NCBI RefSeq assembly: GCF_058153355.1 | Contig: NZ_CM177019.1 | Length of the DNA stretch: 64,000 nt | Direction: 5' to 3' (one strand) | In this document: positions 16,920 to 41,335 of the stretch, piece after piece | Numbering within the stretch: the stretch's first letter is position 1 | Layout of the letters: each line of letters starts with the position of its first letter | Notes under the pieces: generated by a model | What the model saw: the letters and a program-made list of their open reading frames with translations, nothing else | Database searches by the model: none | What the model was told of the DNA's origin: nothing | Translations under genes and position numbers: made by a program

Positions 16920-17012
16920 GGTGAGGTGGCCGAGAGGCTGAAGGCGCTCCCCTGCTAAGGGAGTATGCGGTCAAAAGCTGCATCCGGGGTTCGAATCCCC
17001 GCCTCACCGCCA
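16920..17012 (+). tRNA. serV: tRNA-Ser (anticodon GCU)
   Basis: 93 nt with long variable arm, anticodon loop CUGCUAA, 3' CCA encoded. Confidence 0.93.
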
Positions 17013-17015
17013 TTT

Positions 17016-17092
17016 GCATCCGTAGCTCAGCTGGATAGAGTACTCGGCTACGAACCGAGCGGTCGGAGGTTCGAATCCTCCCGGATGCACCA
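17016..17092 (+). tRNA. argV: tRNA-Arg (anticodon ACG), copy 1
   Basis: 77 nt GCATCCGTAGCTCAGCTGGATAGAGTACTCGGCTACGAACCGAG...CACCA. Confidence 0.93.
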
Positions 17093-17208
17093 TATTCTAC
17101 GAAATCTTCAGCGATGAAGGTGTCGAAGAGGTGGCGGTACTAACCGCAAGCACTAGGGAGGATAACGTTGCTTTAGCAACGGCCCGAAGGGCGAGCCGTA
17201 AGGCGAGT

Positions 17209-17227
17209 AATCCTCCCGGATGCACCA
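17209..17227 (+). repeat. Orphan 3' fragment of tRNA-Arg (acceptor/T-arm end only)
   Basis: aatcctcccggatgcacca matches the last 19 nt of the flanking tRNA-Arg genes; no matching 5' half. Confidence 0.6.
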
Positions 17228-17291
17228 TCTCTTACTTGATACGGCTTTAGTAGCGGTATCAAAAAATCTGCAGTAAAGTAAGTTTCCCGAT

Positions 17292-17368
17292 GCATCCGTA
17301 GCTCAGCTGGATAGAGTACTCGGCTACGAACCGAGCGGTCGGAGGTTCGAATCCTCCCGGATGCACCA
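17292..17368 (+). tRNA. tRNA-Arg (anticodon ACG), copy 2
   Basis: Identical 77-nt sequence to copy 1. Confidence 0.93.
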
Positions 17369-17470
17369 TATTCTCCGTAATCATCAGTGATGATGGTTAA
17401 GATGGATTTTCTTATTTGATATGGCTTTAGTAGCGGTATCAATATCAGCAGTAAAATAAGTTTTCCCGAT

Positions 17471-17547
17471 GCATCCGTAGCTCAGCTGGATAGAGTACTC
17501 GGCTACGAACCGAGCGGTCGGAGGTTCGAATCCTCCCGGATGCACCA
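17471..17547 (+). tRNA. tRNA-Arg (anticodon ACG), copy 3
   Basis: Identical 77-nt sequence to copy 1. Confidence 0.93.
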
Positions 17548-18797: not shown

Positions 18798-20381
<1,584 letters not shown>

Positions 20382-20389
20382 CAGAAAAG

Positions 20390-20462
20390 AAAAAGGCCAC
20401 TCGTGAGTGGCCAAAATTTCATCTCTGAATTCAGGGATGATGATAACAAATGCGCGTCTTTC
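20390..20462 (-). ncRNA. micA: MicA (SraD) sigmaE-dependent sRNA
   Basis: Minus-strand sequence GAAAGACGCGCATTTGTTATCATCATCCCTGAATTCAGAGATGAAATTTTGGCCACTCACGAGTGGCCTTTTT matches MicA as I recall it; gshA-luxS intergenic, with terminator hairpin. Confidence 0.85.
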
Positions 20463-20530
20463 ATATACTCAGACTCGCCTGGGAAGAAAGAGTTCAGAAA
20501 ATTTTTAAAAAAATTACCGGAGGTGGCTAA

Positions 20531-21046
20531 ATGCCGTTGTTAGATAGCTTCACAGTCGATCATACCCGGATGGAAGCGCCTGCAGTTCGGGTGGCGAAAA
20601 CAATGAACACCCCGCATGGCGACGCAATCACCGTGTTCGATCTGCGCTTCTGCGTGCCGAACAAAGAAGTGATGCCAGAAAGAGGGATCCATACCCTGGA
20701 GCATCTGTTTGCTGGTTTTATGCGTAACCATCTGAACGGTAATGGCGTTGAGATTATCGATATCTCGCCAATGGGCTGCCGCACCGGTTTTTATATGAGT
20801 CTGATTGGTACGCCAGATGAGCAGCGTGTTGCTGATGCCTGGAAAGCGGCAATGGAAGACGTGCTGAAAGTGCAGGATCAGAATCAGATCCCGGAACTGA
20901 ACGTCTACCAGTGTGGTACTTATCAGATGCATTCGTTGCAGGAAGCGCAGGATATTGCGCGTAATATCCTGGAACGTGACGTACGCATCAACAGCAACGA
21001 AGAGTTGGCGCTGCCGAAAGAGAAGTTGCAGGAATTGCACATCTAG
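20531..21046 (+). CDS. luxS: S-ribosylhomocysteine lyase (AI-2 synthase)
   Basis: 171 aa; HTLEHL metal-binding motif. Confidence 0.96.
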
Positions 21047-21109: not shown

Positions 21110-22648
21110 TTAGTGCGCACCGCCTCCGCCGCCACCTGCGCCAAATGGCGGTTTAGCAAACCACACCAGCCCCAGCAGGACGAGGAATATCCCGGCTGAC
21201 ATCCAGAAGATCTCATTGGCGGAAATAATCAGCCCCTGATTAGTGATCTGCTGGGCAATCCAGCCTGATGCCTGTTGTTGCGTCATCCCCAGCCCTTCCA
21301 GTTGGCTGTACATCGCCTGAGCGTTCGGGTTAAACGGGTTTACCGACTCGGTTAACTGTGCGTGGTGCATCGACTCGCGGTTAGTCCACATGGTGGTGGT
21401 GATGGATGTGCCGATAGACCCCGCCAGCGTTCGCGTAAAGTTAGAGAGGCTCGATGCCGCCGCCAGTCGCTCCGGTGGCAAACCAGACAGCGTAATGGTG
21501 GTCAGCGGCATAAAGAAGCAGGCCACTGCGAAGCCCTGGATAAACTGCGGCCAGGCCGACGCACCAAAATCCATACCCGGTTCAAAGGTATAGGCACGCC
21601 AGTAGAAGCAGACGGCATACATAATAAAGCTGAAGGTTACCAGCCGCCGCATATCCAGTTTATGCGCGAAGCGGCCTATAATCGGCGACAGGATCACCGG
21701 AATAATCCCTACCGGCGCAGAGGCCAAACCTGCCCAGGTCGCCGTGTAACCGTAGACCTCCTGCAACAACTGCGGCAGCAGAACAATCGCGCCGAAGTAG
21801 AGCATATACGCGAGGCTGATACACAAGCAGCCGATAGTGAAGTTGCGCGACTTAAACAACGACAGATCGACTATCGGGTTATCGTCGGTCAGCTCCCAGA
21901 CAATCAGGAAGCAGATAGCCACCACCGCCACCACGGTGAGGATGATTATTTCCTGCGATGAGAACCAGTCCAGCTCTTTACCACGGTCGAGCATAATCTG
22001 CAGGCTGCCGATACCAATCACCAGCAGTGCCAGCCCCACGGCATCAATCCGCCGCCGTTCGGTGCGGGTTTCACGTCCGCGCAGGGTTTGCAGTGTCATC
22101 AACACCACCGCCACGCCAATCGGCACGTTGATGAAGAATATCCAGCCCCAGTGGTAATTATCGCTGATATAACCGCCGAGGATCGGGCCGCAAATTGGCG
22201 CGACAATCACCGTCATCGACCACAACGCCAGCGCGATAGAACGTTTGGCTGGCGGGTAGTTATTCAGTAACAGACTTTGCGAAAGCGGGATCAGCGGCCC
22301 AGCGACAATCCCCTGAATCACGCGGAAGAAGATCAGCATATTCAGGCTGCTGGAGACACCACACGCCCACGACGCAATAGCGAAGGCGATGGTTGACCAG
22401 AGGAACAGCTTCACTTCCCCAACGCGCTTTGCCAGCCAGCCGGTAAGCGGGATCGAGATGGCATTCGCCACCCCGAAAGAAGTGATTACCCACGTTCCCT
22501 GGCTGAGCGATGAGCCCAGATTCCCGGCGATAGTGGGGATCGCCACGTTAGCAATGGTGGAGTCCAGCACCTGCATGAATGTCGCTAGTGACAGCGCAAT
22601 CGTCATAATGACCAGTTGCGCGCCTTCCAGCGGTTTTTGCTGTTGCAT
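21110..22648 (-). CDS. emrB: Multidrug efflux MFS permease (14-TMS DHA2 family)
   Basis: Start placed at MQQQKPLEGAQLVIMT within ORF 21110..22657; operon emrR-emrA-emrB. Confidence 0.93.
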   Translation of the reverse strand: MQQQKPLEGAQLVIMTIALSLATFMQVLDSTIANVAIPTIAGNLGSSLSQGTWVITSFGVANAISIPLTGWLAKRVGEVKLFLWSTIAFAIASWACGVSSSLNMLIFFRVIQGIVAGPLIPLSQSLLLNNYPPAKRSIALALWSMTVIVAPICGPILGGYISDNYHWGWIFFINVPIGVAVVLMTLQTLRGRETRTERRRIDAVGLALLVIGIGSLQIMLDRGKELDWFSSQEIIILTVVAVVAICFLIVWELTDDNPIVDLSLFKSRNFTIGCLCISLAYMLYFGAIVLLPQLLQEVYGYTATWAGLASAPVGIIPVILSPIIGRFAHKLDMRRLVTFSFIMYAVCFYWRAYTFEPGMDFGASAWPQFIQGFAVACFFMPLTTITLSGLPPERLAAASSLSNFTRTLAGSIGTSITTTMWTNRESMHHAQLTESVNPFNPNAQAMYSQLEGLGMTQQQASGWIAQQITNQGLIISANEIFWMSAGIFLVLLGLVWFAKPPFGAGGGGGGAH

Positions 22649-22664
22649 CACACGCACCTCTGGA

Positions 22665-26955: not shown

Positions 26956-27064
26956 TATTTTTATTCATCAGGTGATGATTAAGCTGGAAATCAATAATAG
27001 CGGATGTTGATGAATATGGGATGAAAGATAGATTGTTGAAATGTGCGGTGTGGTTTGTAGACAT

Positions 27065-27140
27065 GATAAGACGCGGCCGCGTCGCATCAGGCATTGTGTA
27101 CAGAGCGGCGGATAAGGCGAAAACGCCTTATCCGCCCGAA
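27065..27140. repeat. REP palindromic units between ygaY and proX
   Basis: gacgcggccgcgtcgcatcaggc and ggcggataaggcgaaaacgccttatccgcc inverted repeats. Confidence 0.5.
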
Positions 27141-41104: not shown

Positions 41105-41335
41105 TTGCCGGAGAGCGGCTCCGCCTTATCCGGCCGACATAGATTTATTCCTGTTCACGTACAGATTGTTGGATGCGGCGTAAACGCCTTATCCGACCTG
41201 GATTCTCGTAGGCCGGACAAGACGCGAAGCGTCGCCTCCGGCATGGTGCGCCGAATGTCGGATGCGGCGTAAACGCCTTATCCGACCTACATTTCCGTAG
41301 GCCGGACAAGACGCAAAGCGTCGCCTCCGGCATGG
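41105..41335. repeat. BIME: tandem REP elements between gabT and gabP
   Basis: Two near-identical ~60-bp units GGATGCGGCGTAAACGCCTTATCCGACCT...TAGGCCGGACAAGACGC(G/A)AAGCGTCGCCTCCGGCATG. Confidence 0.75.

Follow-up and report, generated by a model that had tools for sequence, protein, structure and literature searches.

We analyzed a 64,000-nt stretch of contig NZ_CM177019.1 (RefSeq assembly GCF_058153355.1), referred to below as the window. The spacer between gshA and luxS (20382-20530, 149 bp) contains the small RNA gene micA on the minus strand. The three genes are placed as follows.

18825-20381, plus strand: gshA coding sequence (glutamate-cysteine ligase), from the open reading frame (ORF) list and the annotated gshA of matching E. 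coli records
20386-20462, minus strand: micA gene (MicA small RNA), from Rfam, the K-12 annotation, identity to K-12 and published 3' ends
20531-21046, plus strand: luxS coding sequence, from the ORF list, annotation and sequence

The gshA gene starts with a TTG codon at 18825 and ends with TGA at 20379-20381, and a Shine-Dalgarno sequence for luxS (GGAGG) is present at 20519-20523. Base for base, the spacer is 100% identical to that of E. coli K-12 MG1655, in whose record micA (b4442) is annotated as a 73-nt ncRNA that corresponds to window positions 20390-20462, 8 nt from gshA. The only differences between the window strain and K-12 in this part are six substitutions near the end of gshA (final ~170 nt), five of which are synonymous, while one replaces Glu by Val at 20311. 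The region 20250-20650 was found in 5423 of 5426 complete E. coli genomes and, among the matches listed, also in at least 120 other species.

Both the ORF list and the PGAP annotation lack micA, in agreement with the sequence-only reading that preceded this work, which had described MicA as absent from the ORF track. All inspected E. coli RefSeq records matching 20250-20650 (eight top matches, NZ_CP027579.1) carry gshA and luxS only, and among the records inspected an annotated micA was seen only in that of K-12 MG1655. Downstream of luxS, the predicted start of the emrB ORF (21110-22657, 515 aa, GTG start, beginning MRVMQQQ...) may lie a few codons upstream of the true one; the annotated start of K-12 EmrB is presumably MQQQ.

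Identity and structure of the small RNA

A whole-window Rfam scan gave a match to MicA (RF00078) at 20391-20462 on the minus strand, scoring 83.9 bits (gathering score 41, E=1.4e-11) and covering the full length of the model (positions 1-75 of 75). The sequence-only reading had assigned a 73-nt minus-strand sequence to MicA, and the covariance-model score, which is clearly not poor, bears out this assignment. The spacer gene is the known E. coli MicA (SraD) in its usual, deeply conserved context, and we found no evidence against the identification. As a whole, the locus is very probably best explained by a spacer that carries micA, the gene of a small RNA (about 72-77 nt) that depends on sigma-E and binds Hfq; parts of micA double as parts of its neighbours. 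Our own analysis provides the identity, anatomy, promoter motif, synteny and pairing potential of MicA.

The first nucleotide of MicA (+1) is the G at 20462. Its 3' end is at 20391 according to Rfam, at 20390 according to the RefSeq annotation, and at 20386/20387 according to published 3'-end mapping. The mapped ends correspond to a length of 76-77 nt, so the 73 nt of the sequence-only reading matches the RefSeq annotation (20390-20462) and not the mapped RNA. The gap between the gshA stop codon and the end of MicA is 9 nt with the Rfam end (20382-20390), 8 nt with the RefSeq end and 4-5 nt with the mapped ends. A distance of 9 nt had been proposed between the stop codon and the hairpin; it is correct for the Rfam end of MicA, whereas the hairpin itself starts after 13 nt (20382-20394). 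The structural elements of the RNA are listed here in window order.

20386-20394, minus strand: MicA U-tail (UUUUUCUUU), between the hairpin and the gshA stop codon, from the terminator scan
20395-20412, both strands: near-palindromic GC-rich hairpin GGCCACTC-GT-GAGTGGCC, an inverted repeat that is the MicA terminator stem and forms also at the gshA mRNA 3' end
20419-20440, minus strand: MicA stem-loop 1 (nt 23-44), from the fold, the inverted repeat and the Rfam consensus structure
20438-20456, minus strand: MicA nt 7-25, single-stranded 5' seed for the ompA ribosome-binding region, unpaired in the predicted fold

The predicted fold of MicA has a free energy of -21.2 kcal/mol (z = -3.05) and consists of two stem-loops and an open 5' end. 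From 5' to 3', the open 5' part is followed by stem-loop 1, an A/U-rich linker, a GC-rich stem of 7-8 bp (nt 51-68, window 20412-20395) and the tail UUUUUCUUU. This is the layout of an Hfq-binding RNA (two stem-loops, a linker rich in A/U, and a Rho-independent terminator that carries a U-tail), as judged from the fold, the terminator scan and the consensus fold of 36 homologues.

To examine pairing we used ompA of K-12, since ompA lies outside the window. The seed (nt 7-25) forms a duplex of -23.1 kcal/mol with positions -22 to -5 of ompA, which include the Shine-Dalgarno sequence, and only 6 of 2000 shuffled seeds paired as well. The 5' region alone was used because the duplex of full-length MicA with ompA was uninformative (a long duplex, matched by 50 of 500 shuffles). 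Pairing of the seed with ompA agrees with the published mode of action of MicA. In the cell, the open 5' end (nt 7-25) would pair with ompA at its ribosome-binding region, as well as with other envelope mRNAs, and this pairing would block translation and promote mRNA decay.

The micA promoter

Upstream of MicA we found the following elements.

20469-20495, minus strand: micA sigma-E promoter, with -35 element GAACTC (20495-20490), 16-nt spacer and -10 element TCTGA (20473-20469), from sequence
20498-20516, minus strand: AT-rich, UP-like stretch upstream of the -35 element, from sequence

The -10 element ends 6 nt upstream of the MicA +1. Both elements and their spacing fit a sigma-E-type promoter, for which a GGAACTT-like -35, a spacer of ~16 nt and a TCTGA-like -10 are typical. 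The pattern GAACT-N17-TCTGA has a single match in the 64 kb when both strands are searched, compared to 0.06 expected from shuffled sequences. Sigma-E -35 and -10 elements had been predicted between 20463 and 20500, and GAACTC and TCTGA indeed lie there. The distance to the luxS ATG is 68 nt from the MicA +1 (20462) and 35 nt from the -35 element.

When 109 unique upstream sequences from other species were aligned without gaps on the +1, AAC at -32 to -30, TC at -11/-10 and A at -7 were invariant, and T at -9 was present in 108 of the 109. The TT at -27/-26 is conserved at 98-99%, and the promoter spacer varies freely. The region from -60 to -36 has a median A+T content of 80% across species; an AT-rich element was also noted in the work on K-12 in which sigma-E dependence of the promoter, identical in sequence, was shown experimentally (Udekwu and Wagner, 2007, PMC1851643). 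When the envelope is stressed, RNA polymerase with sigma-E would start at G 20462 on the minus strand and terminate at the hairpin (20412-20395) with its U-tract.

A sigma-70-like match at 20440-20469 on the plus strand, the sole such match, was set aside, as it is at chance level (0.7 expected) and fits no mapped luxS 5' end.

Comparison across species

With an exact 20-mer from the MicA seed we collected at least 120 loci from contigs representing one genome per species, mostly Enterobacterales. Recruitment by an exact 20-mer biases towards conservation, and the near-invariance reported below results partly from this. The gene order is highly conserved: gshA is convergent with MicA and luxS divergent from it in 115 of 115 loci with both flanks, among the matches listed. 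The same arrangement had been described by the sequence-only reading, and it is confirmed by the ORF list and the K-12 annotation as well.

For 116 of the 117 listed loci, the distance from the hairpin to the gshA stop codon beyond it is 8-27 nt, with a median of 13. It is as short as 8-10 nt in 43 of the species listed, which means that the stop codon abuts the T-rich tail of about 10 nt. The sole far case among the matches listed is Rouxiella aceris (locus L059), in which the gshA stop codon is 101 nt from the hairpin. The distance from the MicA +1 to the luxS start is 67-92 nt in 108 of 119 listed loci and 123-176 nt in the other 11, indicating that in these something is inserted between the micA promoter and luxS. 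The loci with the longer distance include L006, L009, L018, L024, L049, L052, L053, L056, L079 and L084; the genera of ten loci with a long micA-luxS spacer are Superficieibacter, Enterobacter, Pluralibacter, Kluyvera, an Enterobacteriaceae isolate and Pseudocitrobacter.

In the hairpin, all 121 sequences (120 listed loci and the window) share the same outer six pairs (GGCCAC/GTGGCC), and variation is confined to the seventh, which is A-U, U-A or G-C. G-U pairs were absent from the 7-pair stem in all of the 36 aligned homologues. Covariation in these 36 diverse homologues is limited to 2 informative pairs of 18, a thin support that is explained by the sequences being nearly invariant.

Transcripts of luxS that cross micA

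Two features of luxS transcription bear on the spacer.

20199, plus strand: luxS P1 start, sigma-S-dependent, G at -332 from the luxS AUG, inside gshA (Udekwu 2010, PMC2956633), transferred by homology from K-12
20449-20462, plus strand: head-to-head overlap of about 14 nt between MicA and the shortest luxS transcript (R3, proximal 5' end), coordinates inferred from Udekwu 2010

Position 20199 of the window is a G, and the segment 20150-20199, which comprises the published P1 start and about 49 nt upstream of it, has no differences from K-12. For the dependence on sigma-E, the 3' ends, the luxS P1 start and the processing by RNase III we rely on published K-12 experiments on identical sequence. 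According to these, luxS transcripts from P1 continue past the hairpin and are complementary to MicA over its whole length (Udekwu 2010, PMC2956633). Of three luxS mRNA species, the shortest (R3) is found only with RNase III and rises with MicA; its overlap with MicA is 14 nt in that work and 15 nt in an earlier study (PMC2956633). The two long species fall on MicA overproduction, and LuxS protein is unchanged (PMC2956633). In the mechanism that we propose, luxS transcripts starting in gshA would run through the hairpin, be fully antisense to MicA, and then undergo MicA- and RNase III-dependent processing. The demonstrated cross-talk at the locus is post-transcriptional, namely the MicA- and RNase III-dependent processing of luxS leaders published for K-12.

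The hairpin and the 3' end of gshA

The 18-nt hairpin (20395-20412, ggccactcgtgagtggcc) folds equally well on both strands, with -11 kcal/mol each, and the terminator scan called a terminator on the minus strand only. The scan for a hairpin followed by a T-run is not significant alone (1 found versus 0.8 expected from shuffles); significance rests on the covariance-model E-value, the sigma-E motif count and the presence across E. coli and other species. On the plus strand, which is the gshA side, the hairpin is followed by AAAAUUUCAU and lacks a U-tract. Other species show the same two sides. Among the matches listed, the MicA-side tail has 6-7 T in its first 8 nt in the 120 sequences in which the tail was read, and the gshA-side tail has 0-4 T in 8 nt in 121 sequences (the 120 listed loci and the window). 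The gshA-side tail begins with AAA(A). This AAA(A) stretch is the complement of the A/U-rich linker of MicA.

Whether gshA shares the hairpin is better judged from published 3' ends than from sequence.

20413-20421, plus strand: peak of the published 'primary' gshA mRNA 3' end, from PMC10687069 supplementary data, two datasets

In the RNAtag-seq/TRS data, the 'primary' gshA end is at K-12 position 2814845, i.e., window 20419, 7 nt past the stem and after AAAAUUU, the local stop statistic R being 0.70 in one dataset and 0.51 in the other (PMC10687069). The 'primary' micA end is at 2814878/2814877 (window 20386/20387), 8-9 nt past the hairpin, with R values of 0.999 and 0.98 (PMC10687069). Term-seq found the MicA end at 2814877 in all three conditions, and on the gshA strand it placed an end within the loop of the hairpin under one condition (2814861, window 20403) and a strong end inside gshA under another (2814914, window 20350; Adams et al., 2021, PMC7815308). 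The gshA-strand ends thus differ between datasets (window 20419, 20403 and 20350). The plus-strand end at 20350 lies 31 nt before the gshA stop codon and 181 nt upstream of the luxS ORF, at a site with no obvious hairpin and U-tract; either gshA mRNA or the long luxS leader may stop prematurely or be cleaved there.

With its end at 20419, gshA mRNA has a 3' UTR of 38 nt that overlaps MicA by 34 nt. The palindromic hairpin would also form in this mRNA and mark its 3' end about 7 nt past the stem, which would give gshA mRNA and MicA complementary 3' ends of about 34 nt. On the gshA strand, the hairpin has no U-tract and is leaky. The sequence-only reading had proposed that the two genes share the terminator hairpin. 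This holds in that the hairpin folds on both strands and is flanked by the published 3' ends of gshA and MicA. It does not hold as a symmetric arrangement, since the gshA side lacks a U-tract, has the lower stop statistic, shows other ends as well and is read through by luxS P1 transcripts.

The main live alternative, which concerns the gshA side only, is that the hairpin serves MicA and that gshA transcription does not terminate there, the nearby gshA-strand ends being those of read-through RNA that 3' exonucleases trim back to the stable stem or that RNase III cleaves within its duplex with MicA. The plus strand lacks a U-tract in the window and in all 120 species among the matches listed, three different gshA-strand ends were found across datasets, with one of them within the hairpin loop, and luxS P1 RNA crosses the hairpin while RNase III acts on the duplex of MicA with its antisense RNA (PMC2956633), all of which are consistent with this explanation. 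However, two independent RNAtag-seq datasets place the primary end 7 nt beyond the stem, where hairpin-dependent termination usually occurs. Many bidirectional terminators of E. coli, as far as Ju et al. (2019) are summarized in bioRxiv 10.1101/2022.10.23.513370, are unlike intrinsic terminators, and Udekwu cites no evidence of a polycistronic gshA-luxS RNA (PMC2956633). We consider a hairpin that serves MicA alone somewhat unlikely, and infer that it probably terminates gshA transcription and does not just stabilize a processed end. Overall, the hairpin is best described as the 3' boundary of gshA, leaky and possibly defined in part by processing, and not as a strong two-way terminator.

Possible transcriptional interference

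Transcriptional interference among gshA, micA and luxS, which the sequence-only reading had taken to be implied by the shared terminator and the tight spacing, is plausible. A model for bidirectional terminators has been described in which the hairpin traps polymerases that are released by head-on and trailing collisions (bioRxiv 10.1101/2022.10.23.513370). This may be a plausible mechanism for gshA and micA, and polymerase collisions may contribute at the locus.

A stronger claim would be that interference is the main functional consequence of the arrangement. Polymerases converging on the hairpin would then collide, sigma-E induction of micA would change gshA termination and read-through into luxS, and the divergent, overlapping initiation of micA and luxS would compete sterically. 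The convergent and overlapping gene layout, the head-to-head overlap of about 14 nt with the proximal luxS 5' end and the collision model for bidirectional terminators (bioRxiv 10.1101/2022.10.23.513370) all fit such a role. In addition, luxS deletions in Salmonella change MicA levels (PMC2987988), and a review of MicA mentions, as no more than a possibility, that micA and luxS influence each other sterically or through transcription (PMC4618604). On the other hand, MicA overexpressed in trans already reproduces the luxS transcript changes, which indicates an effect at the RNA level, and LuxS protein did not change on MicA induction (PMC2956633). Our literature search found no experiment on interference at the gshA-micA-luxS locus. 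We regard interference as an unlikely main consequence.

One may go further and read the invariant outer six pairs and the lack of G-U pairs as selection on both strands, with the hairpin acting as a collision-assisted two-way stop and sigma-E induction tuning both gshA 3'-end formation and luxS read-through. If true, transcription at this locus would connect envelope stress with the synthesis of glutathione and AI-2, but we consider this improbable. A small protein encoded instead of, or besides, the RNA is practically out of the question: although a 48-codon ORF (20318-20464, minus strand) and a 46-codon ORF (20403-20543, plus strand) are both in the program-made ORF list, these overlapping ORFs were ruled out as coding because homologous MicA sequences differ by frame-breaking indels of 1, 2 and 5 nt and because the minus-strand ATG straddles the MicA transcription start, with A and T at -2 and -1, which puts the start codon outside the MicA transcript; the covariance model, moreover, accounts for the conservation.

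Other features of the window

Several observations were made elsewhere in the window. The serV-arg tRNA cluster (16920-17547) contains tRNA-Ser(GCT) followed by three tRNA-Arg(ACG) genes at 17016, 17292 and 17471, with spacings of 276 and 179. Its K-12 counterpart has four tRNA-Arg genes (argV, argY, argZ and argQ) with spacings of 275, 139 and 275, and the difference looks like a copy-number change by recombination between repeats. Opposite the first tRNA-Arg(ACG), ARAGORN called a tRNA-Arg(TCG) at 17036-17107 on the minus strand where Rfam made no such call; it is probably an artefact of tRNA self-complementarity. Rfam matches to naRNA4 (RF02564, gathering score 59.5) were found on the minus strand at 27060-27137 (59.8 bits) and 41211-41287 (71.1 bits), and both resemble palindromic repeats of the REP type. 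At 49522-49597 on the plus strand, ARAGORN called an isolated tRNA-Met, with anticodon CAT; judging by the K-12 map, it could be an ileY-type tRNA-Ile2.

Significance and comparison with known systems

The findings are already known; publications from 2001-2010 onwards describe MicA and its sigma-E promoter, the location between gshA and luxS, and the overlap in antisense with the luxS leaders. The locus has little value as a discovery, and its practical value is that of an annotation check. Because micA is missing from ORF lists and standard PGAP annotation, luxS deletions or changes at the gshA 3' end can disturb MicA unnoticed. Such a disturbance has already confounded luxS biofilm phenotypes in Salmonella, where altered MicA, and not LuxS, was identified as the source of the biofilm defect seen after deleting all of luxS (PMC2987988).

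Three known systems can be compared with the locus. The first is formed by cis-encoded antisense RNAs that are processed with their targets by RNase III, such as CopA/CopT of plasmid R1. Like these, MicA is fully complementary to a target RNA, the long luxS leaders, and in K-12 an RNase III-dependent luxS species was reported to accumulate with MicA. Unlike CopA/CopT, MicA has its main established role in trans, on ompA, phoP and other mRNAs, and an effect on LuxS protein was not seen.

The second consists of the bidirectional terminators of convergent E. coli genes (Ju, Li and Liu, 2019; collision model of Wang et al., 2022). The locus resembles them as a convergent pair whose mapped 3' ends overlap, by 34 nt in this case, with an overlap that spans a hairpin forming in both RNAs. 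It differs in having as one partner a small RNA, whose intrinsic terminator is fully canonical, and in the weak and leaky gshA side.

The third system is MicA of E. coli K-12 itself (SraD, RF00078, b4442). The spacer shows no difference from it, the six late-gshA substitutions lie outside the spacer, and the likeness extends to the whole spacer sequence, the neighbours and their orientation, the sigma-E promoter, the two stem-loops, the U-tail and the ompA seed.
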